Positions 41,738-60,488 of a stretch of DNA of 64,000 nucleotides are shown piece by piece. Position numbers and translations under genes: made by a program. Origin of the DNA: Gemmatimonadota bacterium (GTDB taxonomy: Bacteria > Gemmatimonadota > Gemmatimonadetes > Gemmatimonadales > GWC2-71-9); NCBI GenBank assembly GCA_036679605.1, contig JAZDCZ010000386.1:96001-160000 (forward strand). The letters are read 5' to 3'. Each line of letters begins with the position of its first letter. Position 1 is the first letter of the stretch. The notes under the pieces were generated by a model. That model saw only the letters and a program-made list of their open reading frames with translations. It ran no database searches and was not told where the DNA came from.

Positions 41738-42688
41738 ATGGCCAAGAAGGTGCTTGTGACCGGTGGTGCTGGATTCATCGGCTCGCACGTTTCTGACCTT
41801 TACGTGAAGGACGGCTACGAGGTCACGATCATCGATAATCTGTCGAGCGGTCGTCGTGAGAACGTTCCGCCCAAAGCAACGTTTGTACAGTGTGATATCG
41901 GCTCGCCGGAGGCTCGCGAGCTGCTCGAGAGCAACCGGTTTGACGTGCTGAACCATCACGCGGCGCAGATGGATGTCCGAGTCTCGGTGGCCGACCCTGA
42001 ATTCGATGCCAGAACCAATATCTTGGGGTTTCTCAACCTTCTGGAGGGCGCTCGGGCCGGCGGTACTGGGCGCGTTGTGTTTGCATCGTCCGGTGGGGTT
42101 GTGTACGGCGAGAGCGACGCACTGCCGCACAAGGAGGATGCCCGCAAGCTGCCCATATCACCATATGGAGTGAGCAAGCTCACCTCGGAGTTCTATCTCG
42201 CTGCCTACTCTCTGCTGCATGGCATTGAGGTCATCTCGTTGCGCTACGGCAACGTCTATGGGCCGCGTCAAAACCCTCATGGTGAGGCTGGTGTCGTCGC
42301 GATATTCTGCAGCCGGATCAGCGCGGGTGCTCCAATCGAGATTTTTGGCGATGGCGAGCAAACACGCGATTACGTATTCGTCACGGACGTTGCGCGCGCG
42401 AACCTAGCCGTTACCAGTTGCCCCGTCGAGAGCATCGACACCATTGACGTGGCCGCATTCAATGTCGGCACCGGAACCGAAACGAGTGTTAACACGCTTG
42501 CACAGACACTGATCGCTGCTACCGGAACCAACACGCAGATAGAGCACCTGCCTCCCCGATCGGGAGAACTTCAAAGGAGCGCAGTGGACATAGGCCGGAT
42601 ACAGCGCGAACTCGATTGGGAGCCGCAGGTTCCATTACAAGAGGGACTGCAAGCTACCTATCAGTGGATTACGGAGAACGCCACGTGA
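41738..42688 (+). CDS. NAD-dependent UDP-sugar 4-epimerase (SDR)
   Basis: TGGAGFIGSH, YGVSK, RYGNVYGPRQ, GEAGVV. Confidence 0.88.
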   Translation: MAKKVLVTGGAGFIGSHVSDLYVKDGYEVTIIDNLSSGRRENVPPKATFVQCDIGSPEARELLESNRFDVLNHHAAQMDVRVSVADPEFDARTNILGFLNLLEGARAGGTGRVVFASSGGVVYGESDALPHKEDARKLPISPYGVSKLTSEFYLAAYSLLHGIEVISLRYGNVYGPRQNPHGEAGVVAIFCSRISAGAPIEIFGDGEQTRDYVFVTDVARANLAVTSCPVESIDTIDVAAFNVGTGTETSVNTLAQTLIAATGTNTQIEHLPPRSGELQRSAVDIGRIQRELDWEPQVPLQEGLQATYQWITENAT

Positions 42689-43401
42689 TCTTACAAGTGG
42701 GCGGAGCGCTGCCGACGAGCCCGTGGGAACTCATCACCGCATCGAGTGTCGCCACCAAGATCGTCCTTCTCATTCTCGTAGTTTTCTCAATGGTCTGCTG
42801 GTCTCTGATTCTACTTAAGTGGGTCCAGTTTAGGCGCGTGAGAAAGCTGGGTGACCGGTTCTTCGACGAGTTGGAACGCACGTCGCGCCTGGAGGATGCA
42901 TACCACGCAGTGATGAAACTGCCGCCGTCTCCGTTCGGCCGCCTGTTGCGGGAAGGTCTGAACTTCTTTTCCGAAATCCGCCCGGGTGCGCTCAAGGAGA
43001 GAGGGGAGCAACCGCAGAACGACACCCTTTCATCCACGCAGCTCGAAGTGCTGCGGATGCAGCTGGCAAAGGAGATAGGTGCGGAACGCGACCTGATGGC
43101 GCGGTTTATACCATGGTTGGCGACTATCGGCTCGGTGAGTCCGCTGATGGGGCTTTTGGGCACGGTACTCGGTGTCATGGATTCATTTCTCGGCATCGCA
43201 TCCGGCGGGTCGGGAAATATTTCGGCGGTCGCACCCGGAGTGGCTGAAGCGCTCGTGACTACCGTCGTGGGCCTGGCGGTCGCGATTCCGGCGGTAATCG
43301 CATATAACCTTCTCGCGAATCGGCTCGGGGTGTTCGTCGGTGAATTGGAAGGTTTCGCTCAGGAGATCATCGGCTCAATGGCGCGAGAAGGAAAAATTTA
43401 G
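42685..43401 (+). CDS. tolQ: TolQ (MotA/TolQ/ExbB family)
   Basis: LATIGSVSPLMGLLGTVLG, APGVAEALVTT; tol-pal context; start GTG 42685. Confidence 0.88.
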   Translation: MILQVGGALPTSPWELITASSVATKIVLLILVVFSMVCWSLILLKWVQFRRVRKLGDRFFDELERTSRLEDAYHAVMKLPPSPFGRLLREGLNFFSEIRPGALKERGEQPQNDTLSSTQLEVLRMQLAKEIGAERDLMARFIPWLATIGSVSPLMGLLGTVLGVMDSFLGIASGGSGNISAVAPGVAEALVTTVVGLAVAIPAVIAYNLLANRLGVFVGELEGFAQEIIGSMAREGKI

Positions 43402-43403
43402 CA

Positions 43404-43832
43404 GTGCCGAATCGAGGATTTGGGAACAGAGGCGACTTGCCACTCAGCGCGGACATCAACGTGACGTCGTTGGTCGATGTCGCATTCGTCCTGCTGATCA
43501 TCTTCATGATCACTGCGCCCATCATGCAGGGGGGGGTGGACGTCGAGCTGCCGCGAGGCGAGGCCCGTCCGATCCAGCCCAAGGACGGGCTCAACGTCAC
43601 CGTGAACCGGGAGGGCCGGATCTTTGTGGGAGACGACAAGACTTCCCTCTCGTATCAAGAGTTTCGTACCACGTTCAAGGCGCTGGTCGATCGGCGGAAG
43701 CCCAACGGCGTTTACCTTCATGGCGATAAGCGTGCCGACTACGGTGATGTGGTGCGCGTATTGGCAGTGATTCAGGCGGCGGGGATCGAAGGGGTGGGAA
43801 TAGTCTTGCAAGACGAGGTAATACGTCGGTGA
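43404..43832 (+). CDS. tolR: TolR (ExbD family)
   Basis: DINVTSLVDVAFVLLIIFMITAP. Confidence 0.88.
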   Translation: MPNRGFGNRGDLPLSADINVTSLVDVAFVLLIIFMITAPIMQGGVDVELPRGEARPIQPKDGLNVTVNREGRIFVGDDKTSLSYQEFRTTFKALVDRRKPNGVYLHGDKRADYGDVVRVLAVIQAAGIEGVGIVLQDEVIRR

Positions 43833-44530
43833 GAGGATTGGGCCGGCCGGGTGTGACCAGCGCAACTGGAACCCGCGCAAGAACCGGCGGAGCAGTGGCA
43901 GGTAGTCTTGCCTTTCACATTCTCGCGGGTGCGTTGGTGTTGGTACCGGCCGGGGTGCAGCGAGCCATGCCGCCGGTCTACCGTGTGGAACTAGTCGCGG
44001 CCCCGAAAACAACTCGACAGACCCGCCGCGCTCCGGAGGTTGTGCAACGGCCGGCCGAGCGGACGGTGCCTACGCGTCAAGAACGTCGTACGTCTGTCGC
44101 AGAAGCGCCCCCTCCTCCCAAGCAAGATCGCGAACACGAGCAGGAGCCGGCGGCACGGACGAATCCCGACACGTTGGTCGCGGATGCAGAGCCCTCGACC
44201 GGGAGCGATCCCGCGACGGTAAACACCAGCGGCGTAGATTTCCCGTACCCTGCCTACCTGCAAAATATCGTGGTACAGGTGTATCGCAGGTGGAGCCGTC
44301 CCAAGGGCAACCGGTCGCTCAAGGCCGAAGTGATATTTTTCATTCACCGGGACGGTGCGGTCACTAATTTTCAGTTTGTGCAACGCTCGGGGAGTTTCGG
44401 ATTTGACACGGAGGCTCAGGGAGCCATAGAGGCGGCCGCCAATGCGGTCGCGTTTGGCCCGCTGCCTGATGGTTATCCGGCCGACGTTCTTCCGGTGAGC
44501 TTCTTCTTCGATCCCAAGTCGGCGAGATGA
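43829..44530 (+). CDS. tolA: short TolA/TonB-like protein
   Basis: TM with SxxxH (SLAFH), extended linker, TonB_C-like domain; between tolR and tolB. Confidence 0.75.
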   Translation: MRGLGRPGVTSATGTRARTGGAVAGSLAFHILAGALVLVPAGVQRAMPPVYRVELVAAPKTTRQTRRAPEVVQRPAERTVPTRQERRTSVAEAPPPPKQDREHEQEPAARTNPDTLVADAEPSTGSDPATVNTSGVDFPYPAYLQNIVVQVYRRWSRPKGNRSLKAEVIFFIHRDGAVTNFQFVQRSGSFGFDTEAQGAIEAAANAVAFGPLPDGYPADVLPVSFFFDPKSAR

Positions 44531-45906
44531 CGGAGGGTTTGCGCAAGCGGATGCTCGGGGCGAAGACGCTGCGGGTTCTGCAGTTCTTGTTAGCGCCGGC
44601 GTTGGCAGCCAGTGCGGTGTCGGCCCAGGACACCATCCCGCCGGTTGAGCAAGGAGTCCGACTGGGTATCACTTACACCCCGGGAATGCGGCCGGGCATG
44701 CTCGTGTTGGGAGGACCGCATCGAGAAGTGCTCGATTCCGCCCGCACAATCTTGCGGCGAGATCTGGATTTCAGCGATCGCTTTGAGATGATTTTCCTGC
44801 CGGGTGGAGACAGTCTGGTTCTGGGTGTGAGCACGACCGAAGACAACGGGACGACCTCCGGGGTCTTCGTCAATTATTCGCTATATGCTGCTCTCGGGGC
44901 CGATTTCGCGGTCAGCGTGTTGGAGACCCCAGATTCCTCTCTCAGCGTGAACGTTTATGACGTGAGGGGTGAGGCGGTGGCCAAGAGCGCAGTGCTGGCC
45001 GAATCCGATCCTCACTCGCCAGAGTTTAGGATGGAGGTACACCGGGCGGCGGACGAAGTGGTTCGCGTGGCGACCGGCGAGGTTGGGTTTGCGGCCAGCC
45101 GCGTCACATTCGTCAGCCGGGGTCGACTCTATACAATCGACTCTGACGGACGTGGGCGCAGGCCCCTGTCTCCCGATGGTGTGTCCGCCTTTTCTCCTGC
45201 CTGGTCTCCCGATGGTTGGATGCTGGCCTATACCGATTTCAGGCAGGGGAGCATCAGGCTCCATGACCTGAGATCGGATACGGAATCGACGATTGCGGTC
45301 ACTTCCCAATATATGAACTACAGTCCGATATTCTCTCCGGACGGACGGGCATTGGCGTTCAGTCGGAGCTGGGAACAGGGCACTGACCTCTTCTCATATA
45401 ACCTTGCGCAGGACTGTTGTTTACAACGCTTGACGGTGGGTCGGTTTTCCGATAACCTTTCACCAGCATTTAGCCCAGACGGGCGTCGAATCGCGTTCGA
45501 GTCAACTAGATCGGGCCTTGCTCAGATCTACGTGATGGCGTCAGATGGCACCGACCAGGAGCTGTTCGCACCATTTGATTATGGGGTAACGGGCGACTCG
45601 CATAGTCCGACTTGGTCTCCCGATGGGTTGTGGTTGGCGTTTCATCGAACGGTGGCCGGAAGTCCGCAGGTTTTCTTGATGGATTCGCGGACCAGAAGTG
45701 TCCGGCAGTTGACGAGCTTTGGCCGTAATGAAGATCCATCGTGGGGGCCCGACAGTCGGCACCTTGTGTTCAAGTCGAGCCGCACGGGATCGGAGCAGGT
45801 CTGGGTGATGGATACCGACACCGGACGCGTTCGCCAGCTGACTAGAATTGGTGGTACGAGGTTTCCCAAGTGGTCTCTTCGTATAGAGAGACCTGACGAA
45901 AACTGA
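44527..45906 (+). CDS. tolB: TolB beta-propeller protein
   Basis: DLDFSDRF N-domain, PD40 repeats (PAWSPDG, PAFSPDG). Confidence 0.88.
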   Translation: MTEGLRKRMLGAKTLRVLQFLLAPALAASAVSAQDTIPPVEQGVRLGITYTPGMRPGMLVLGGPHREVLDSARTILRRDLDFSDRFEMIFLPGGDSLVLGVSTTEDNGTTSGVFVNYSLYAALGADFAVSVLETPDSSLSVNVYDVRGEAVAKSAVLAESDPHSPEFRMEVHRAADEVVRVATGEVGFAASRVTFVSRGRLYTIDSDGRGRRPLSPDGVSAFSPAWSPDGWMLAYTDFRQGSIRLHDLRSDTESTIAVTSQYMNYSPIFSPDGRALAFSRSWEQGTDLFSYNLAQDCCLQRLTVGRFSDNLSPAFSPDGRRIAFESTRSGLAQIYVMASDGTDQELFAPFDYGVTGDSHSPTWSPDGLWLAFHRTVAGSPQVFLMDSRTRSVRQLTSFGRNEDPSWGPDSRHLVFKSSRTGSEQVWVMDTDTGRVRQLTRIGGTRFPKWSLRIERPDEN

Positions 45907-45939
45907 ACTTGACTCAACGAACCTGATCTTGGAGTTACA

Positions 45940-46569
45940 ATGCGCCTTTCCCTAGCCACTACATTGGGCATTTCTGCCATCCTGATCGCCAGCGCCTGCG
46001 GCGGCAATCCACCACCGCCGGTCACACCCCAGCCCGATCCGGATTCCATTGCACGGGCGAACGCCCAGCGAGACTCAATTGCGCGCGAGACGGCCCGTGC
46101 AGACAGCTTGAGGCGCGTGAGGGAACGCGAGGAGCGCGTCCGCCGCCAGCGGACTACCGATTCCCTGGCGACAATCCGCCGGGAGACAGATGCCGTCCGC
46201 GCGATGATTGCCCGAAGAGTCCACTTCGATTTCGATAAATCTGCAGTCCGTGTGGGTGAGGACACCGATGTGTTGAATGAGAAGCTGGCGGTCTTGCAGG
46301 CCAATCCCGGATTGAGTATCGAGATCACCGGACACTGCGATGAGCGCGGAACCGATCAGTATAATGTTGCCCTGGGCAATAGGAGAGCGATTTCAGCCCG
46401 GAAATTCCTGACCGACCGGGGCATAGATGCATCGCGCATTACTGTCGAGTCGAGGGGTGAGGAGCAGCCGGCCGACGCGGGCCACACTGAGAGCGCCTGG
46501 GCTATGAACCGACGGTCCGAATTCACAATTACGGGTGGTGGTTCGGTTCTCAAGCGTCCTGGGATGTGA
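45940..46569 (+). CDS. pal: peptidoglycan-associated lipoprotein
   Basis: Lipobox ASAC, HFDFDKS, GHCDERGTDQYNVALG, NRR. Confidence 0.92.
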   Translation: MRLSLATTLGISAILIASACGGNPPPPVTPQPDPDSIARANAQRDSIARETARADSLRRVREREERVRRQRTTDSLATIRRETDAVRAMIARRVHFDFDKSAVRVGEDTDVLNEKLAVLQANPGLSIEITGHCDERGTDQYNVALGNRRAISARKFLTDRGIDASRITVESRGEEQPADAGHTESAWAMNRRSEFTITGGGSVLKRPGM

Positions 46570-47354
46570 GGTCGTTTGGTGCATTTGTAGTAGCGTCCGT
46601 CGCCTTGAGCGCTTGTGCGCTCAAGGGCGATGTTCGTCGCGTTGAGAACGAAGTACAGCAACTCCGTGCTGAAATGGCCCGCGCAGATTCTGCGCGGGCC
46701 GATTTTTTTGATGTCACATTCCAACAGATAATCACGCTCCAGCAACGCCTTACGGACTCTGTTAGGCTCCAGAGTCAGCGGTTGGTGGCGTTTCAGGGCA
46801 CGGTCCGAACCGACATGACAGAGGTCTTGCGGCTGCTGGTTCAAACTCAAGAACTCACTGGCCAGAGCCAACAGCGACTCTCCGAGTTACAGGACAGGCT
46901 GGAGGAACGCGAAAGGGTCCCGGTCGTCCAGGGAGCGGTCGCCGGAGATACGTCGGGTGCGGCGATCTCTGCGGGGGATGTGCCACCTGCCTCCGAGATA
47001 TACAACGTCTCGATCCAGCAACTGCGCCGCGGCAGCGTTCAGACGGCGCGCCAGGGTTTCAGATTTCTGCTGAGCAATTATCCCGACGACGAGCGGGCTG
47101 GAGATGCACTGTTTCATATCGGCGAATCATGGGAGCGCTCGGATCCCGATTCAGCTGCTGTCGCCTATGAGCTTGTTGCACAGCGCTATCAAGACTCGCC
47201 AAGAGCCCCCACGGCGCTGTACCGTCTTGGTCTTCTTGCCGAGCAACGGGGGGACCTAGAAGCAGCACAGGTGTATTACAATCGGGTTGTCAGCGGATGG
47301 CCCAGGTCGGACGCTGCTGAACTCGCCCGGGCCAAACTGAATCCGGGCCGCTAG
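46566..47354 (+). CDS. cpoB: Tol-Pal associated CpoB/YbgF-like protein with lipobox
   Basis: LSAC, coiled coil, three C-terminal TPRs; directly after pal. Confidence 0.8.
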   Translation: MRSFGAFVVASVALSACALKGDVRRVENEVQQLRAEMARADSARADFFDVTFQQIITLQQRLTDSVRLQSQRLVAFQGTVRTDMTEVLRLLVQTQELTGQSQQRLSELQDRLEERERVPVVQGAVAGDTSGAAISAGDVPPASEIYNVSIQQLRRGSVQTARQGFRFLLSNYPDDERAGDALFHIGESWERSDPDSAAVAYELVAQRYQDSPRAPTALYRLGLLAEQRGDLEAAQVYYNRVVSGWPRSDAAELARAKLNPGR

Positions 47355-47382: not shown

Positions 47383-50300
47383 ATGACTAGGAAACATCAC
47401 AAGGGCGAAATGCCCTTTCTCGATCATCTCGAGGAACTGAGATGGCACATCCTGTGGAGTCTTGCCGCCCTCGTAGTAGGCTCGGCGATAGGCTTCTACA
47501 CGGTGCAGCACTTCGACGTGCTGGCGTTGCTCAAGGCTCCGATCGCGCCATTCCTTCCCGAGGGCAAGCTGTTCGTCACGCGGCCCACCGAAGCATTTTT
47601 TATCACCCTCAAGCTTGCCCTGCTCGTCGGAGTCGTGCTCGCCGCACCGATCATTGCATGGCGAGCGTGGTCGTTCCTGTCGCCGGCAATGTATGAACAC
47701 GAAAAGAAGCATGTAACACCGGCCCTGATTGCAGGGATAGGACTGTTCCTGGCAGGGGCATTGATGGCATACCTGTGGGTGCTGCCGGCCGCTCTCAAGA
47801 TCTTCTTCTCGTTCCAGCGGGAGGATCTCGAGTTCATCATCACAGCAAACGAGTATTTCAGTCTGGCCACCCAGATCATACTCGCGTTTGGAATCATGTT
47901 CGAACTTCCGGTTCTCATGGTGTTCCTCGCGACGATCGGGCTCGTTGGCCCCTCGGCATTTGCCAAGAACCGGCCGTTCGCACTTGTGGTAGCAGCCGTT
48001 CTTGCCGCCATGCTCACGCCACCCGATGTGGTGTCGATGCTGATGTTGATGGCGCCGATCGTGTTGCTTTACGAAGTCGGTATCATGATTTCGCGGGTCG
48101 TATGGAAGAAACGAGTCAACAATACAATTGCTGGCGCGGTGCTCATCCTATGCCTTTTGGGCGGTGCCACGTCCGTCAGTGCCCAAGGCGGGCAGCCACC
48201 GCCGCCGCCCCAGGGGCAGGCTGGTGTCCTGCAGGATACTGTTCCCCAGCCGATCGACACCGCTGCTGCGCGACTACTTGGCCTTCCCACTCAACCATCC
48301 CGCTCCTTCCCATCCGCAGACTCACTTCTTACGGCCCTGGCGGCGCTGACTGGATATGGAGTGACACGTTACGCCGCCGACAATCTGTCGCTGTTGACTC
48401 AGACGAGCGCCATCACGCTGAACGGACGTGCCTTGGTCGAGCGCGAGGGAAGTTTACTGGAGGCCGACTCTGTGCTGTTCTTGCAGAGCGAATGTAGAAT
48501 GTTGGCGACTGGAGATCCCAAGCTCTTTGACAGGGAGACGATTTTAGTGGGCGAGGGAATGTCATATGATACCTGTCTCAGGCGCGGAATCATCGCCAAA
48601 GGCTTTACGAGATTCAACCAACAGGGGGTAGATTGGTTCCTGAAGGGTGAGTTGGCGGTAGATTCTGCGTCCACCCGCATGTACTCGTATGAAAGCGACG
48701 TTACCTCGTGCGATCTCCCAACTCCGCACTATCACTTCGCGGCGCATAACGTCAAGTGGGTTTCCAACAACCTCATGGTAGCACGGCCCGCGGTGCTCTA
48801 TGTGCGAGATGTGCCGGTATTGTGGCTTCCGTTCATGTTTCAGGACATGCGCATCGGTAGGAGAAGTGGCATCCTGGTCCCACGGTTTGGAATCAATGAT
48901 CTGGTTCGTCCGAGTAGTGGCTACAAGCGCCATATAACCAATACGGGATACTACTTCGCCATCAACGATTACATGGATTTCCAGACTTCTATCGATTGGT
49001 TCTCGGAGAATTTTGTGGCGCTGAACGGTCAGTTCAGGTATCGGTGGCTCAACCAATTCGTGACTGGAAATCTTGCCCTGTCACGAATCTTCGAGTCGGG
49101 AGTGGACGGGGTGGGGGGCGCCAAATCTATGCGACTACAGTGGACGCACCAACAGAGTTTTGATCAACGCACCCGTTTGAACGCCAGCGTCGACTATGCG
49201 ACGAGTGCTCGCGTTGTGGAGCGAAATTCGGTCGATCCACTCCTTCAGACGGCCACATTGGGCAGCAGGATCAACTTCAACAAGCAGTATGACTGGGGAA
49301 CGGTGACGGTTGGCGGGAGCCGCACGCAAGATCTGAGCAACAATACGGTGAGCCAGACGCTCCCCAATCTGAGTATCTCCCCTGTCCCGATCAACTTGAG
49401 CGAGAACATCACTTGGTCTCCGTCGTTCTCATTGACGAGGGTGCAGCGACTGAGCCAACGACCAGGCATCCCATTGCTATCGGCGCCGATAGGTGGGGTC
49501 GAGAGCGTAGACTCTCTATTTCCCGATCAGCGGACTCTGTCCGTTAGAGTCAATACCCCGCTTAGAGTCGGTCGGTGGAATCTGCAGAACGATTTCAGCT
49601 TCAGCGACTTCACGACGGACCGTCCGCCGCCGCCGCTCACAATCATCGATCCCGACGACTCAAGCCAGGTCACGACCCGGTTTTTCGGAGAGGACTTCAA
49701 CTCGAGCCTTGACTGGAATACGGGGATCAATCTGCCGATCCTGCTGTCGAGTACATGGAAGCTACAGCCAACACTGGGCATCCAGAACAAGACATCGGGC
49801 CCGTTCATGATACGAAACCGTTTTTCCGGTGGTAATTGGGTTAGCCAGGGGAAGAGGCTGTCGTTTGGTGCCAGCATCTCGCCGACGCTGTTCGGTTTCC
49901 TCCCCGGCGTGGCCGGGTTATCCCGCATCAGACATGCAGTATCTCCGCGGGTCAGCTGGAATCTCAGGCCATCGGCAACGGTGCCTGAGGACTTTGCCAG
50001 GGCCCTTGCCGGCCCTTCTGCTACTCTGCAGTTGAAGAGTCCTACGGTTCATACCGTCAGCTTCGGTCTGTCGCAGACGTTTGAAGGAAAACTCAAGCCC
50101 CCACCAGACGACACGACGTCGGATATCCGTAACTTGCCCAAGGTCAAAGTGCTGCGTATTCAGACATCGTCGATCCAGTATGATTTCGAGCAAGCGAAGA
50201 AACCCGGAAGGAATGGCTGGCGCACGCAGTCGTTGCGGAACAGCTTGACTAGCGATCTACTGCGTGGTTTTACGCTTTCGGCGTCCCACGATCTGTGGGA

Positions 50301-50898
50301 TGGCCCCGTGGGTTTTGACAGTTCGTCTTTTAGTCCCTTTCTCACATCGGTGTCGGCGCGCTTCAGCCTAACTGGACCGACGATCACCAACGTCTTGGCC
50401 ATGCTGACGGGCGGAAACACCAAGCCCGAACCGGAAGAGGAGTTCGATGACGAAGACGACTTGCTGCAGCCTCAGGGCACGGCGACTGGTCCTCCGCGTG
50501 GACTCGATCCGGCCATCGACCGACTCGGTGCGCGCCGTCTGCCCGGGCGCGGTTTTCGTGCCGGCATCACCTACGACGACAAACGCAGGCGTCCGCGTCG
50601 TACTTCGGATTCGACTGTCATCGAGACACCGGCTGAGCGCACTGTTGGGTTGCAGGTTGGTTTCTCTCCCACCGCAGCTTGGTCGGTATCGTGGAACACG
50701 CAGTACAACGCAACGACAAAGGACTTCGGACAGCACATAGTTAGGATGGACCGCGAGATGCATCGATGGCGGGCGACCTTCTCATTTGTGAAGGCCCCCA
50801 ACGGCAACTTTGCCTTTAACTTTTTCATCACTCTCACCGACCAGCCGGAACTGAAGTTCCAGTACGATCAACGCACTGTCAGGCAGGGACGGCGCTAG
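47383..50898 (+). CDS. fusion of TatC (about aa 1-245), an internal signal peptide and an LptD-like outer-membrane protein (from about aa 268)
   Basis: TatC motifs PFLDHLEELR, FLSPAMYEHEK, FELP, LTPPD, LYE; then TSCDLPTPHY, VPVLWLPF, RRSGILVP, GYYFAINDY, REMHRW typical of LptD-like proteins; no stop codon between them. Confidence 0.85.
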   Translation: MTRKHHKGEMPFLDHLEELRWHILWSLAALVVGSAIGFYTVQHFDVLALLKAPIAPFLPEGKLFVTRPTEAFFITLKLALLVGVVLAAPIIAWRAWSFLSPAMYEHEKKHVTPALIAGIGLFLAGALMAYLWVLPAALKIFFSFQREDLEFIITANEYFSLATQIILAFGIMFELPVLMVFLATIGLVGPSAFAKNRPFALVVAAVLAAMLTPPDVVSMLMLMAPIVLLYEVGIMISRVVWKKRVNNTIAGAVLILCLLGGATSVSAQGGQPPPPPQGQAGVLQDTVPQPIDTAAARLLGLPTQPSRSFPSADSLLTALAALTGYGVTRYAADNLSLLTQTSAITLNGRALVEREGSLLEADSVLFLQSECRMLATGDPKLFDRETILVGEGMSYDTCLRRGIIAKGFTRFNQQGVDWFLKGELAVDSASTRMYSYESDVTSCDLPTPHYHFAAHNVKWVSNNLMVARPAVLYVRDVPVLWLPFMFQDMRIGRRSGILVPRFGINDLVRPSSGYKRHITNTGYYFAINDYMDFQTSIDWFSENFVALNGQFRYRWLNQFVTGNLALSRIFESGVDGVGGAKSMRLQWTHQQSFDQRTRLNASVDYATSARVVERNSVDPLLQTATLGSRINFNKQYDWGTVTVGGSRTQDLSNNTVSQTLPNLSISPVPINLSENITWSPSFSLTRVQRLSQRPGIPLLSAPIGGVESVDSLFPDQRTLSVRVNTPLRVGRWNLQNDFSFSDFTTDRPPPPLTIIDPDDSSQVTTRFFGEDFNSSLDWNTGINLPILLSSTWKLQPTLGIQNKTSGPFMIRNRFSGGNWVSQGKRLSFGASISPTLFGFLPGVAGLSRIRHAVSPRVSWNLRPSATVPEDFARALAGPSATLQLKSPTVHTVSFGLSQTFEGKLKPPPDDTTSDIRNLPKVKVLRIQTSSIQYDFEQAKKPGRNGWRTQSLRNSLTSDLLRGFTLSASHDLWDGPVGFDSSSFSPFLTSVSARFSLTGPTITNVLAMLTGGNTKPEPEEEFDDEDDLLQPQGTATGPPRGLDPAIDRLGARRLPGRGFRAGITYDDKRRRPRRTSDSTVIETPAERTVGLQVGFSPTAAWSVSWNTQYNATTKDFGQHIVRMDREMHRWRATFSFVKAPNGNFAFNFFITLTDQPELKFQYDQRTVRQGRR

Positions 50899-50906
50899 GC
50901 GATCCC

Positions 50907-51003
50907 TGTCCCAAATGCAGGACATTTATTTCCCAAGGCCTAGTGGGTAATTACTTGTAAAACAATAGGTTACGAGTTCATAGCTGGTTGGCACGCGATC
51001 TGC
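50907..51003 (+). promoter_or_regulatory. sigma54-type promoter module (activator site, IHF-like site, -24/-12)
   Basis: TGTCC-N8-GGACA at 50907-50924; AAACAATAGGTTA at 50960-50972; TGGCACGCGATCTGC at 50989-51003. Confidence 0.7.
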
Positions 51004-51044
51004 CTCCGTTAGCGACAGAACGGTCAGAGACTGGGAGGCTTGAG

Positions 51045-51941
51045 ATGCGACGAGTACTGCTCGTGCCATTGGTCGGGATTCTTGCAGCTGCCTGCGGCAA
51101 TGATTCAGTCAACGACATTGTCGTAACTGAGTTGGAACCGCCGGCGTCACTAACCACTACGAGTCTCAACGGCGCGATCCATTTGGCGTGGACCGACAAT
51201 TCCTTTGCCAATGCGCCGGCCGACCTGTTTCTGCAGTACAGGGTGTACAGCACTGGTTTCGATATCGACATCGACGGCGGGCTGTGTGACCAGACCTGGG
51301 ATCAGGAAGGATCAACCATCGCACCGGAGTTCTTGGTCGGCGCGCTGACCAACGGAGTTCCGCGGTGCTACGGCATAACCGCGGAGAGTCTGGATGGGGG
51401 AGAGAGCGATTTCTCGCCGATCTGGGGGGATACTCCACGGCCGGATGCTCGTAACGTCTTGATCTTTGCGATACAGAGCGGCCCCACACAGAGCGGGTTT
51501 CGCTTCTTCCAAGACGTGGACGGCAACGGGCAGGTGAGCGCATTGGAACTAGGTGCGGTAGCAGACGGAAACCGTACGGATATCGATTTTTGGGTCGACC
51601 GCGACTCGAACGGCGATTTTTTCATGGTTCCGGAGCGCGCAGGTACTGAACTCGCACTCTATGATCCAGACCCGATAGCGGACTTGACTTCGATCAACTT
51701 TGCCCCAGTGGGTGGCTACGGTCGCAACGCGATCCAAGCGCTGCCGCAGTTTGGTTACGTGTTCCAGATGGATGAGGGCGATGGATTCCCGCGGTTTGGG
51801 GCAGTTCGGGTGACTCACGTCGGGGCCGACTACATGTTGTTCGACTGGAGCTACCAGACGGACCCAGGCAACCCAGAGCTGTCAGTGCATGGGGGTGCCG
51901 GAATCGCCGGTGACGAAAGCTTGGTAGTGCCGAGCCGGTAA
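51045..51941 (+). CDS. lipoprotein with FN3-like domain and DxDxNG loop
   Basis: GGGAGG SD, MRRVLLVPLVGILAAAC lipobox, DVDGNGQVSALE. Confidence 0.8.
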   Translation: MRRVLLVPLVGILAAACGNDSVNDIVVTELEPPASLTTTSLNGAIHLAWTDNSFANAPADLFLQYRVYSTGFDIDIDGGLCDQTWDQEGSTIAPEFLVGALTNGVPRCYGITAESLDGGESDFSPIWGDTPRPDARNVLIFAIQSGPTQSGFRFFQDVDGNGQVSALELGAVADGNRTDIDFWVDRDSNGDFFMVPERAGTELALYDPDPIADLTSINFAPVGGYGRNAIQALPQFGYVFQMDEGDGFPRFGAVRVTHVGADYMLFDWSYQTDPGNPELSVHGGAGIAGDESLVVPSR

Positions 51942-52030
51942 GGCGCGCCCGATTGGCGAACGGACTTCTGACACACTGGCACTGCGGCATTTTCTGACTC
52001 TCAGGGCCCAACCGCCCTATATTCTTGGGC

Positions 52031-53533
52031 ATGTCAAACGAGGTCATGATTGACGGGGAGTCGCTCTCCGTTGCAGACGTGGTAGCGGTTGCACGTGACC
52101 GCGCCCGAGTAACGATTTCCGACAAAGCGAAAACTGCGGCCGATCGCTCGCGCAACGCGGTCGAGAAGTTCATCGACGGCGGAGCGTCGCTGTACGGGGT
52201 CAATACCGGTTTCGGCAAACTGGCCGACACGAAGATCGCCAGTGACCAGTTAATCCAGTTGCAACGCAACCTGATTCGGAGTCACGTAGCCGGCGTGGGT
52301 TCGCCGCTACCTACCGAACTGGTCAGAGCCCTCATGCTGCTGCGTGCTAACGTCCTGCTGAAAGAAACCAGCGGTGTGCGCTCACTGCTTGCCGTGCGTT
52401 TGGCGGACCTGCTGAACGGTGGTATCCATCCGGTTGTGCCCGAGCAGGGTAGTGTCGGTGCGAGCGGCGACTTGGCTCCGCTGGCCCACGTGGCGCATGC
52501 GCTCATGGGCGAGGGTGAGGTAGACGTGGATGACGGGAGGCGGGTCCCGGCCTCGGAAGCCTTCACGGATGCGGGAATCGAGGCCGTCGAGTTCCAGGCC
52601 AAGGAGGGTCTCTCGTTCATCAACGGCACCCAGGCGCAATCGGGCATCCTTGCGCTCATGGTGCACGACGCGCGGAACTTGTGGCGTACCGCGCACGGTG
52701 CGGCGGCGATGAGTCTCGAGGCATTGAGAGGTACACCGGTGCCGTTCGATGCACGGATTCACCGCGTAAGACCCCACAAAGGCCAATCCGAGTCGGCCGA
52801 GATCATGCGCGAGTTGTTGGTGAACAGTGAGATCCGCGAGTCGCATAGAGAGAACGATTCTCGCGTTCAGGATGCCTACAGCCTGCGCTGTACGCCGCAG
52901 ATTCTGGGGCCGGTCAAGGACGCGATCGAGTTTGCGGCTGGTGTAATAGAGGTCGAACTCAATGCCGCAACGGACAATCCTTTGGTCTTTGGTGACGAAA
53001 TCTTGTCCGGCGGCAACTTCCACGGCCAACCGGTCGCTATGGCACTCGATTTCTTGGGAATCTCGCTCACTACTCTCGCGGGCCTATCCGAGCGACGTAT
53101 TGACCGCATGCTGAATACCGAAACGTCGCACGGGCTTCCCGCATTTCTCACTCACGATCCGGGTCTCCAGTCCGGGTTCATGATGGTACAAGTTACCGCT
53201 GCGGCCCTAGTGGCAGAATCACGGACTCTCTGCACTCCGGCGAGCGTCCAGTCGATTCCCACTGATGGTAATCAAGAGGATTATGTGCCGATGGGGATGG
53301 CTGCAGCGTTCAAGGCGCGCCGGATCTTGGCCAACGCCACTCGGGTGGTTGCTTGCGAACTGCTGGCTGGGGCGCAAGGTCTCGAGTTCTTGAAGCCCCT
53401 GCGCCCCGGCGACGGTGTCCGTCGAGTCTACGGGCGGGTGAGAAAGTTGGTATCGGCGCTGGAAGAAGATCGTCCGTTCACTCCAGACATCGAGTGCATG
53501 AGCGAACTCATAGGGCGGGAGTCGCTGATATGA
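52031..53533 (+). CDS. hutH: histidine ammonia-lyase
   Basis: [11 protein letters not shown] motif [25 protein letters not shown]; next to hutU and hutI. Confidence 0.95.
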
Positions 53534-55197
53534 CTTTTACGGGCGCCCGGACGGTTCGAGCACCGCGAGGTTGCGACATTTCATGCCGTGGTTGGGTCCA
53601 GGAAGCGGCCCTCCGAATGTTGATGAACAATCTCGATCCGGAGGTCGCCGAACGCCCCGATGATCTGGTCGTTTATGGCGGAACCGGACGTGCGGCGCGC
53701 AGTTGGAAAGCCTTCGAGGCAATCTGTTCCAGCCTCAGGTCACTGGGCAACGATGAGACCTTGCTGATCCAGTCCGGGAAGCCCGTGGGAGTGTTCACCA
53801 CCCATGAGGACGCTCCGAGAGTTCTCATAGCCAACGCCAACCTGGTTGGTCGCTGGGCTACGTGGGAGAACTTCCGGGAGTTGGAACGCCAAGGGCTCAT
53901 CATGTACGGCCAGATGACAGCCGGCAGCTGGATCTATATCGGAACACAGGGAATTCTCCAGGGGACCTACGAGACACTCGGGGCGCTGGCCGAACGGCAC
54001 TTCGACGGGTCACTCAAGGGTAAGATCGTGCTTACCGGGGGGCTGGGTGGTATGGGTGGGGCCCAGCCGCTGGCGGCCACGATGAACGGCGCCGCGTTTC
54101 TCGGCATTGACGTCGACCCGTCACGCATCGAGCGACGAGTCGAGACGCGCTACATCGACGCCATAACCGATTCGCTCGACGACGCCTGGCGCATGGTGAC
54201 GGAAGCCCGCGATCGCGGCGAACCGCTATCCGTGGGACTGGTGGGCAACTGCGCCGAGCTACTGCCCGAAATCGAGAGCCGGGATTGGGTGCCGGACGTC
54301 CTTACCGATCAGACGTCGGCGCACGATCCGCTAAACGGATACGTACCGGCGGGACTGTCGCTGGACCAGGCGGCCCAACTGAGGACATCCGATCCCGATG
54401 AATACGTGGATCGCGCACGCGATTCCATTGCACGTCACGTTCGATCGATGTTGGCGCTCAAGAAACGCGGCGCGATCACATTCGACTACGGCAACAACAT
54501 CCGGACTGAGGCATTCGATCGCGGGGTTTCGGATGCATTCGACATTCCCGGCTTCGTGCCCGAGTACATTCGTCCTCTGTTCTGTCGCGGACAAGGCCCG
54601 TTTCGGTGGGTCGCCTTGTCGGGAGACCCCCAGGATATCTACCGGAGCGACGAGCTGGTGCTGGAGTTGTTTCCCAATAACGATCACCTCGTTCGGTGGA
54701 TGCGTCTCGCACGCGAAAAGGTCGCGTTTCAGGGACTGCCTGCAAGGATCTGCTGGCTGGGCCAGGGTGAGCGAGCACGCCTCGGACTCGCGATAAACGA
54801 TCTGGTCAAGAGTGGTGAGATAACCGCACCCATAGTTATTGGAAGAGATCATCTGGACACCGGTTCGGTGGCCTCACCGTTCCGGGAGACGGAGGGGATG
54901 AAGGACGGGTCGGATGCCATCGCCGACTGGGCCATTCTAAATGCACTGCTCAACACCGCGTCCGGCGCATCATGGGTTTCATTCCATCACGGCGGTGGAG
55001 TCGGCATCGGCAACAGCCTTCACGCCGGGCAAGTGATCGTTGCCGATGGGACCGAGGCCGCCGCCCGCAGACTCAACCGCGTACTCACCAATGATCCTGG
55101 CATCGGCGTCGCACGGCACGCGGACGCCGGCTATTCCGAAGCGATCGAGGCAGCTCAACGACACGGGATTTCGATTCCGATGCGGGAGATTGAGTGA
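53530..55197 (+). CDS. hutU: urocanate hydratase
   Basis: [35 protein letters not shown]; start ATG 53530. Confidence 0.97.
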
Positions 55198-56459
55198 GCG
55201 TTCTCCTTGAGGGGGCGAGCCAGGTGGTCACGTGCCGCGGACCGGCGCGGGCTCGGCGCGGAAACGAGATGGCCCAACTCGACGTCATCGATCGGGGCGT
55301 GGTTGTTCTGGATGGTGACCGTATCGCTGCTGTTGGGACCTATCAGGATCTAAGACGCGAGCATCCCGATGCGGAAGTCCTCGAAGTCGAGGGAGTTCTT
55401 TTTCCCGGTTTTGTGGACTGTCACACCCACTCCGTTTTCGGAGCGGCCCGACTGGAAGACCACGAGCGGCGCGCACGAGGAATCGGGTACAAGGACATAG
55501 CCGCGGCCGGTGGTGGAATACTAGCGTCGGTGCGCGACGTTAGATCTCGAACGGTAGAGCAGTTGGCCCAACTGCTCGGAACGCGCCTGGATCGGCTGGT
55601 GGCTTGTGGTACCACGACGGTTGAGGTGAAAAGCGGCTATGGCCTCACGTTGGAGTCGGAACTCGCCCAACTCGAGGCTATCAAACGCGTGTCCCTCAAC
55701 TCCGGTCCGTCTCTGATAGCTACGTTTCTGGGAGCACACGAAGTACCTCCCGAATTCCGCGGTCACACCGACGAATATGTTGAAGCGGTGGTAAGCGAGA
55801 TGCTGCCGGCGGTGGAGCGGCAGGGCGTGGCGCGGTTTTGTGATGTATTCTGTGAGCCTGGCGTATTTACTGTCGCACAATCTCGCCAAGTGTTGAGTGC
55901 GGCTCGCAGCCATGGACTCGGCCTCAAGCTCCACGCTGATGAGTTGGACGGGTCTGGTGGCGCCGAGTTGGCCGTTGAACTCGCTGCGGTTAGTGCCGAC
56001 CATCTGGCTGCCATATCCGACGCAGGTATCGCGGGGCTCGGAGCGTCGGATACGGTCGCGGCGCTGCTTCCTGGTACCATGCTGTTCCTTGGCAGTCGCA
56101 GGCAGGCGCCCGCCCGGCGATTGATTGAAGGGGGAGCCTCAGTTGCCTTGGCGACCGACTTCAATCCGGGAAGCTCTCCCGGAGTGAGCCTCCCGCTGAT
56201 GGCTACGCTCGGCGTGTCTCAGCTGGGTATGATCCCTGCTGAATCCGTGATAGCCATTACAGTGAACGGAGCCGCCGCGGTGGGAACCGCCGATTCTCGC
56301 GGGCAGATTGCGCCGGGAATGAGGGCAGATCTGGCGTTAGCCAGCGTGCGAGACTGGCGAGAGCTACCTTATTGGTACGGTGTCAACTTGATCAGTGAAG
56401 TGTGGATTGGAGGAGTGGCTTGTCACCCGCTGGAGTGCCCCATAGTTTCGTTAGGCTAG
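55194..56459 (+). CDS. hutI: imidazolonepropionase
   Basis: [27 protein letters not shown]. Confidence 0.95.
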
Positions 56460-60248: not shown

Positions 60249-60488
60249 ATGCTGCCAAACATCGGAATACCAGAACTCTTAATTATTCTGGTCGTGGTGC
60301 TACTAGTCTTCGGCGCCAAACGGCTGCCCGAGATGGGGTCGGCCATGGGGAAGGGCATCAGGGAGTTCAAGCGCGGCATCAAAGATGTGACGAAGAGCAT
60401 CGATGAGAGTGTCGACGATATCCCAACTCCCCGGAACATCGACGCGTCGATGTCCTCCGATGGAGAACCCAAGAAACTGAGTGAATAA
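60249..60488 (+). CDS. tatA: twin-arginine translocase TatA/E
   Basis: [33 protein letters not shown]. Confidence 0.95.

Follow-up and report, generated by a model that had tools for sequence, protein, structure and literature searches.

TatC and LptD in one open reading frame

The locus described here lies in a 64,000-nucleotide stretch of DNA from an uncultured Gemmatimonadota bacterium of the order Gemmatimonadales (assembly GCA_036679605.1, contig JAZDCZ010000386.1, positions 96,001 to 160,000 of the forward strand). We refer to the whole stretch as the window, and all coordinates are window positions unless stated otherwise. An open reading frame (ORF) on the forward strand at 47383..50898 starts with ATG and runs in one frame for 1171 codons plus a stop. 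It encodes a TatC followed, after a short hydrophobic stretch, by 904 residues of LptD-type sequence from Gln268 onward. The first-pass annotation of this DNA, made from the letters alone, had proposed that the two proteins are joined by an internal signal peptide and released from one polyprotein. Its coordinates and length for the ORF were reproduced on the window sequence.

The TatC domain covers aa 10-244 (47410..48114, forward strand) as judged by Pfam, NCBIfam and the predicted fold. It has six transmembrane helices, and the sixth (TM6) ends near aa 240. The Pfam family PF00902 (TatC) matches aa 14-225 over profile positions 1-208, with an E value of 5.7e-61 and 206.4 bits against a cut-off of 25.1, and the NCBIfam model TIGR00945 (tatC) scores 199.1 bits against a cut-off of 132.7. 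Residues 1-234 of the Aquifex aeolicus TatC structure 4B4A align with aa 10-244 of the query (E 5.6e-45). Because this alignment runs from end to end, the TatC half is taken to be complete, ending at W241-K-K-R244. An AlphaFold2 (AF2) model of the chain, built with 86 homologues, has a mean predicted local distance difference test score (pLDDT) of 77.6 and a predicted template modelling score (pTM) of 0.55. It places the TatC helices at aa 12-246, mostly with a pLDDT of 75-93, in the six-helix TatC fold. Foldseek gave the TatC half target TM-scores of 0.78-0.82 to 4b4a, 4hts and 9dzz at 34-37% identity, the value of 0.82 being that for 4b4a and 9dzz_A. The free cytoplasmic C-terminus that follows TM6 in other TatC proteins is absent here, as the chain runs on into the hydrophobic stretch and LptD.

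The LptD half is classed by its family match as an LptD_2-type protein and is not an equivalog of the E. coli LptD. PF19838 (LptD_2) matches it in two stretches, the better one at aa 466-666, with an E value of 6.2e-41 and 141 bits against a cut-off of 22.5. The matching region begins at about aa 330. Among 14 control genomes, this family was found only in Bacteroides thetaiotaomicron. The mature part would open with a linker rich in Pro and Gln (aa 269-289, 48187..48249, forward strand), which varies in length and also occurs in relatives with a separate lptD; aa 260-289 are disordered in the AF2 model (pLDDT <50). A conserved N-terminal motif follows at aa 290-316 (48250..48330, forward strand), with D292, P302, P305, P310 and D313 invariant. 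After it come a beta-jellyroll-like domain from aa 328 to about aa 500 (48364..48882, forward strand), delimited by AF2 strands and alignment with LptD structures, and a large C-terminal beta-barrel at aa 517-1164 (48931..50874, forward strand), delimited by AF2, Foldseek and the LptD_2 match.

A jellyroll followed by a very large barrel is the architecture of LptD, and it appears in both the AF2 model and the Foldseek matches. When the model was compared with the Protein Data Bank (PDB), the top 16 Foldseek matches were all LptD, with E values of 3.4e-25 to 3.6e-13 over 738-965 aligned columns. They include 8h1s, 8h1r, 4q35, 9kn3, 7omm and 5iv9, and TatC structures rank next. A profile of the alignment also finds the Neisseria gonorrhoeae LptD 7omm by sequence (aa 330-654, E 3.3e-9), as well as 8h1r (E 1.4e-7). 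The claim that the C-terminal part is LptD-like was therefore borne out by both family match and predicted fold, and the identity of both halves is a direct observation.

The motif at aa 290-316, which precedes the jellyroll, is found in both fused and split forms of the window genome's own family (f1) and in family f3. Family f2 has a different motif at this place.

In the window genome (G000; 6.7 Mb, 96.5% complete, 6.34% contamination), the fused gene supplies the only complete TatC as well as the sole PF19838 match, and the other LptD family, PF04453, has no match in this 96.5% complete genome. tatA is present together with nine TAT_signal_seq matches above the cut-off, a count that speaks for presence only. 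The genome also encodes a signal peptidase I (Peptidase_S26, 157.6 bits), an LptF/LptG pair and LpxC. Since the only complete TatC and the only LptD_2 protein stand beside tatA, Tat signals, signal peptidase I, LptF/LptG and LpxC, both halves are expected to be needed.

A second tatC in this genome (contig C315, locus L040, 1426-2052, reverse strand) was considered as a functional alternative copy and rejected because it is a fragment truncated by the contig end. It belongs to a different TatC type, is 33% identical over aa 155-289 and carries a long insertion in a periplasmic loop. It has its own stop with no lptD after it, and transposase/integrase-like ORFs lie alongside. The fragment may be a paralogue or a contaminant; it may be foreign DNA, because the bin measures 6.7 Mb compared with 3.7 Mb in a congener and has 6.34% contamination. 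Each of the 15 complete fused genomes of f1 in a 24-genome sample gave one match; therefore, no second tatC was detectable in them with the query used.

Conservation of the single frame

Read support at the junction, which the first-pass annotation had singled out as the first thing to check, was sought in assembled sequencing runs. A 14,686-nt Logan contig from run X1 is identical over the whole ORF, but the window may itself derive from it. A separate sample, X2, yielded an 8,157-nt contig that also spans the whole ORF and differs by 314 substitutions and four 1-nt insertions or deletions (indels). In two pairs (49100/49102 and 50671/50679), the indels compensate each other, and none lies near the junction. 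Among the 40 X2 substitutions listed (of the 314, counted from the ORF start), 37 fall on the third codon position. Runs X4 and X5 were set aside, since they cover short parts only, at 90-99% likeness, and neither bridges the junction. No RNA run was listed among those that contain this stretch. No stop or frameshift was seen at the junction in either the window or the independent-sample contig. The absence of a stop and of a twin-arginine motif that had been reported for this part of the window was confirmed on the sequence.

The occurrence of TatC and LptD in one protein is the rule in f1. The protein collection was searched for homologues; in 114 of the best 120, PF00902 and PF19838 share a single chain of about 1110-1200 aa. 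These proteins come from NCBI, JGI, ENA and Logan, and where they are named, they are called TatC of Gemmatimonadota or Gemmatimonadales. In the 24-genome sample of other f1 members, 17 genomes gave a match that spans the junction in a single frame. The genes are adjacent but split in two others (G002 and G011), tatC lies elsewhere in two more (G008 and G013), and three (G009, G012 and G015) were left unassigned due to contig ends or fragments. In a phylum-wide sample of 401 genomes, the fused single frame was found in at least 136 of 166 other f1 genomes (134 of 164 without the unpublished G199 and G082). Among the matches listed for that sample, 136 of 150 span the junction in a single frame, all from f1.

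At the DNA level, 15 of the first 32 loci were found to be one frame from tatC to the lptD stop, as were two of five further genomes. Apparent internal stops in G021, G004 and G006 were rejected, since each proved to be the terminal stop codon. The ESM Atlas holds two clusters of fused proteins, with 104 and 78 members, in which Gemmatimonadota is the commonest phylum. The fused frame and its conservation are thus observed directly.

The junction between TatC and LptD

The junction follows a simple order. The basic cluster W241-K-K-R244 (48103..48114, forward strand), at the cytoplasmic end of TM6, is proposed to be the n-region of the internal signal peptide. After five residues comes a hydrophobic stretch of 14 residues, I249-A262 (48127..48168, forward strand), a candidate for either a signal peptide core (h-region) or a seventh transmembrane helix. 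The putative c-region, T263-A267 (T-S-V-S-A), and Gln268 occupy 48169..48186 (forward strand) and lead into the Pro-rich stretch. Signal peptidase I is predicted to cut between 48183 and 48184, at V-S-A/Q. Ala267 lies at 48181-48183, as first reported, with the codon GCC followed by CAA for Gln268.

By rules of our own, the junction therefore has the parts of a signal peptide: a positive n-region in W-K-K-R, an h-region in I249-A262, and small residues at -1 and -3 in V-S-A/Q. This signal-peptide-like composition is read directly from the chain. It differs from an ordinary signal peptide in position, as it begins at about residue 241, after a complete protein with six transmembrane helices, instead of at the N-terminus of a precursor.

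These features are kept across the fused proteins. A small-x-small/Q site follows the hydrophobic stretch in 113 of the 114; sites were selected with Gln at +1, so this fraction is the finding and the number of sites with Gln at +1 is not. Position -1 in the 113 sites is A in 96, G in 13 and S in 4, and position -3 is A in 63, L in 24, G in 12, V in 7, S in 5 and T in 2. The net charge between TM6 and the hydrophobic stretch has a median of +4 (range 2-7) in the same 113 proteins. Relatives with a separate lptD have a small-x-small/Q site at the end of the LptD signal peptide in 22 of 23 cases. Measured from the last charged residue, the site lies at a median distance of 21 (14-27) in the fused proteins versus 19 (15-27) in these 22. 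Judged from these figures, the length is typical of a signal peptide and is not extended toward that of a stable anchor. The internal h-region and cleavage site, whose conservation had been suggested as a check, are kept equally well in fused and split relatives.

All 86 sequences of the alignment have Gln268. Six of them are stand-alone LptD proteins, which share 64-72% identity with the LptD part of the window and have N-terminal signal peptides that end exactly at this residue. Since Gln268 is invariant as the first mature residue, a free N-terminus would still be made; we see no other way to make sense of it. The residues of the h-region itself are less conserved, with a majority-residue fraction of 0.46, compared with 0.67 for TM6 and 0.76 for both the N-terminal motif of mature LptD and the jellyroll. 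AF2 predicts a helix at aa 250-259 with low confidence (pLDDT about 48-60) and does not dock it confidently onto TatC. Both the alignment and the model suggest that the h-region behaves as a signal peptide, unlike a structural helix. The AF2 docking was set aside as evidence on packing or topology due to the low pLDDT.

Export of LptD through the twin-arginine route was also considered and rejected. The window has K-K-R at this place, and the RRR runs that precede the h-region in many relatives belong to the TatC juxtamembrane cluster, which occurs in split TatC tails too.

A motif of the type Asn-Ser/Thr-Ile-Gly/Ala lies between the basic cluster and the h-region (48118-48132, aa 246-250) and recurs in many fused proteins. 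Some split TatC tails (loci L013 and L023) terminate with it as well, which suggests that compact fusions join right after it.

Split relatives and history of the fusion

Other Gemmatimonadota, in other families of the order and outside it, have tatC and lptD as separate neighbouring genes. These split pairs (families f2, f3, f8 and f10; loci L013-L027 and L035-L037) share with the window the same gene order after a tol-pal-type cluster. Their TatC and LptD are orthologous to those of the window, at 33-54% identity, and the LptD signal peptide ends at the same invariant Gln. They differ in making two polypeptides, the TatC having a cytoplasmic tail of 20-35 residues that is often acidic. In the window's single polypeptide, this tail is reduced to the basic cluster that is the proposed n-region of the internal signal peptide.

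The split genes are closely spaced. In 9 of 15 split loci (L014, L019 and L021-L027), the lptD start overlaps the TGA stop of tatC as ATGA or GTGA, and in 13 of the 15 it lies within -8 to +1 nt of that stop; the start positions of L013 and L017 are unclear by the rule used. Two loci, L020 (G040) and that of G205, have the GTG with which the lptD signal peptide begins directly after the stop and in frame with it. The first-pass annotation had held that a stop at the junction in close relatives would speak against the polyprotein. Such stops do occur, but they mark natural split forms and do not refute it.

Because of the ATGA and GTGA overlaps, one indel, or loss of the stop, can fuse or split the pair. 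The ancestral state is, from the gene arrangement, a translationally coupled tatC-lptD pair, and this overlap of start and stop explains why fusion and fission recur. The two proteins had also been suggested to be made in 1:1 amounts through the fusion. This is probably not new to the fused form, since translational coupling exists in the split relatives as well.

The LptD part of 37 loci was used to build a maximum-likelihood tree (quick search, SH-aLRT support, rooted on a single long-branch f10 locus). At least eight changes between the fused and split states are needed on this tree; since loci were chosen partly for their state, eight is a minimum count that gives neither a rate nor the direction of the changes. 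Most f1 loci are fused, and four split tips (L013, L014, L029 and L030) are nested among them separately. In f2, where most loci are split, two separate tips are fused (L028 and L033), and each pairs with a split sister locus at 100% support. One f4 genome (L034) is fused, its neighbour in the tree being a split f8 genome. The fused junctions of f1 are for the most part compact, passing from TM6 through the basic cluster to the h-region, and the young fusion in G035 keeps a long acidic TatC tail. Since the states interconvert at least eight times, both arrangements work as two separable proteins.

The f8 genome G205 (L036/L038) has two tandem tatC genes in one frame, then TGA and the immediate GTG start of lptD. 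The two TatC proteins are 49% and 35% identical to that of the window, and the second has a loop insertion.

Processing of the fused chain

We consider it probable (about 0.7) that the TatC-LptD chain is a polyprotein that signal peptidase I cuts into two ordinary proteins. The merger removed the tatC stop, a short acidic TatC tail, and the start and n-region of lptD. TatC would enter the inner membrane during translation as a protein of six helices whose C-terminus stays in the cytoplasm. W-K-K-R after TM6 would then serve as the n-region, and I249-A262 as the h-region, of the former LptD signal peptide. The hydrophobic stretch would insert with its N-terminal end inside and its C-terminal end outside, starting Sec-dependent export of the 904 residues that follow. 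A cut by signal peptidase I after V-S-A267 would release mature LptD, beginning at Gln268, which would reach the outer membrane and fold there. TatC would be left with a 23-residue C-terminal remnant that includes the hydrophobic helix. How the chain inserts, where it is cut and what becomes of the remaining helix are inferred from what is established about Sec signal peptides and the specificity of signal peptidase I.

Several points weigh against this reading. The cut site was called by our own simple rules of charge, hydrophobic stretch and small-x-small, with Gln at +1 as a condition of selection. One fused protein of the 114, P0090, has Thr at -1, and the split locus L017 (G032, f3) has no recognisable signal peptide in the frame read. 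The proteobacterial LptD equivalogs NF002997 and NF003358 score just 28 and 26 bits on the LptD half against cut-offs of 683 and 944. Its role in inserting lipopolysaccharide (LPS) is drawn from its family, its fold and the lack of an alternative candidate. With a pTM of 0.55, the AF2 model is uninformative on the geometry between domains. Finally, conservation of the cleavage site is equally expected if LptD is made from an internal start, and two further points bearing on such a start are given with it below.

L017 differs from its close relative L016, which has a signal peptide. A frameshift or a misanchored reading frame may explain the difference.

The alternative raised by the last of these points is dual expression, in which most functional LptD is made by independent initiation at an in-frame codon close to the end of TM6, and the read-through chain is cleaved as well or degraded. 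The first-pass annotation had pointed to an ATG at 48085, which is indeed in frame (48085-48087, Met235). Initiation there would give a signal peptide of 33 residues with a basic n-region, and the ATG is kept in the congener G001. Most fused loci also have an in-frame GTG near the end of TM6, although GTG is a common Val codon in GC-rich genes. In 17 fused loci, we compared the stretch from the L-Y-E motif of TM6 to the h-region and found no conserved internal start, as the positions of in-frame ATG, GTG and TTG codons vary. One of these loci, L011, has no in-frame start codon before the h-region at all. No consistent Shine-Dalgarno (SD)-like motif precedes the internal starts in these 17 loci, where such motifs are absent or arise from Glu-Val codons. 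The earlier statement that there is no SD-supported internal start was thus upheld, in a test of low power: SD-like motifs precede just 8 of 15 genuine split lptD starts, and none precedes the tatC start, so that their absence is weak evidence and does not exclude initiation. For this reason, the SD analysis was discounted as a test of internal starts. A stronger, structural argument is that tatC has no stop, so every TatC would carry LptD, and the polyprotein would have to be handled in any case. Taken together, we find dual expression unlikely.

If the chain is processed by signal peptidase I as proposed, the fusion is probably of little consequence, given that its split relatives have translational coupling already, and this small effect would explain how often it has arisen and reverted. 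One could instead suppose that the fusion is adaptive and not neutral. Targeting of TatC by the signal recognition particle (SRP) would then force a barrel precursor of about 900 residues onto co-translational export at a fixed 1:1 ratio. In addition, the remnant, as a seventh helix with a periplasmic C-terminus near TM5 and TM6, where helices of the TatA/TatB type bind, could modulate Tat assembly in a lineage that has only TatA and TatC. We regard this as doubtful.

An uncleaved chain had also been raised as an option. The hydrophobic stretch would then be a permanent seventh transmembrane helix, and the product would be a TatC-anchored protein with its barrel in the outer membrane and a Pro-rich link across the envelope. 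The flexible, length-variable Pro-rich linker of about 20-50 residues after the site would suit such a tether, but stand-alone LptD has the same linker, so it is not a spacer specific to the fusion. Conservation of the predicted cleavage site and of the short length of the hydrophobic stretch is as strict as in the split relatives, with Gln268 invariant, and the eight or more switches among 37 loci are hard to reconcile with a need for a covalent link. We know of no barrel whose assembly takes place while it is tied to the inner membrane. A tether is therefore very improbable.

An assembly or sequencing error, or pseudogene-like read-through in a metagenome-assembled genome, might be suspected from the large bin of G000 (6.7 Mb, 6.34% contamination) and, in principle, from lone fused tips beside split sisters (G035 and G112) that could be 1-nt errors, but this explanation is refuted for f1 by the intact frame of the X2 contig with its mostly third-position substitutions and compensating indels, by 114 fused database proteins drawn from four sources and at least 136 further genomes with the fusion, and by the good conservation of both halves.

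Genomic setting

The fused ORF had been described as closing a tol-pal operon, and tol-pal-cpoB-like genes do lie upstream on the same strand (42616..47354, forward), identified by profile matches and closely spaced. The TolQ-like ORF starts at 42616, the TonB_2/TolA-like ORF at 43829, the TolB-like (PD40) ORF at 44527, the Pal-like (OmpA) ORF at 45940 and the CpoB/YbgF-like (TPR) ORF at 46566. A gap of 28 nt separates the fused ORF from the preceding gene. No promoter-like or terminator-like site was found at the junction. A weak terminator-like hairpin lies 3' of the fused ORF stop, at 50905-50924. The tatA gene, which had been placed about 9 kb downstream, was found 9.4 kb away at 60261..60407 (forward strand; G000:C319:156261-156407). 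It scores 70.6 bits with TatA_B_E and is the sole TatA/B/E match in the genome.

Directly after the fused gene, an ORF of 317 aa (50988-51941, forward strand) carries a hydrophobic stretch at its N-terminus and matches no Pfam family at E 0.01. It is followed by a histidine-utilisation cluster (52025-56459, forward strand) with an aromatic amino acid lyase (HutH-like), a urocanase (HutU) and an imidazolonepropionase-like amidohydrolase (HutI).

Comparison with known systems

If the predicted cut is real, this gene encodes a natural bacterial polyprotein with one product for each of two different membranes. The Sec and signal peptidase machinery would then accept an outer-membrane barrel precursor behind a complete polytopic membrane protein, the n-region of a signal peptide would be supplied by the preceding protein, and TatC would tolerate an extra C-terminal helix. 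The importance is lower than it first looks, as the likely end result is two ordinary proteins. For annotation, hundreds of entries of about 1170 aa are named just TatC, which hides the sole LptD of these genomes. The locus is also a clean example of how translationally coupled ATGA and GTGA overlaps make fusion and fission a one-indel event.

A full-text literature search found no paper describing a TatC-LptD fusion, and a term search of a survey of TatC diversity (PMC3827258) gave neither "fused" nor "fusion". The earlier statement that there is no characterised example therefore stands for TatC-LptD itself but not for the principle, which has a bacterial precedent in FbcH, described below.

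The TatC half has its canonical counterparts in E. coli and Aquifex aeolicus. The LptD half can be compared with the canonical LptD of E. coli, Shigella, Klebsiella and Neisseria (LptDE), represented by 8h1s, 4q35, 5iv9 and 7omm. It aligns with these structures over about 870-960 columns, at 9-13% identity to the solved LptDs.

Viral glycoprotein polyproteins, such as those of flaviviruses and bunyaviruses, use internal signal peptides that set topology and provide cut sites for the host signal peptidase, as described in excerpts of PMC7926653. These belong to viral genomes and rely on the eukaryotic endoplasmic reticulum (ER) and its signal peptidase complex, whereas TatC-LptD is a cellular bacterial gene that would depend on a type I signal peptidase.

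While the split, translationally coupled tatC-lptD pairs are the closest relatives, the closest precedent for the mechanism is FbcH of Bradyrhizobium japonicum. This cytochrome b/c1 precursor was reportedly found by Thony-Meyer and colleagues (about 1991) to be processed at an internal signal peptide into two proteins. Both FbcH and TatC-LptD place a polytopic inner-membrane protein and an exported protein, otherwise separate, in one ORF, joined by the signal peptide of the downstream protein. Cytochrome b-c1 fusions are typical of Bradyrhizobiaceae, according to an excerpt of PMC4986455. The two FbcH products stay in one complex in the same membrane, whereas the predicted cleavage of TatC-LptD would send its products to unrelated machines, Tat and Lpt, in two membranes.

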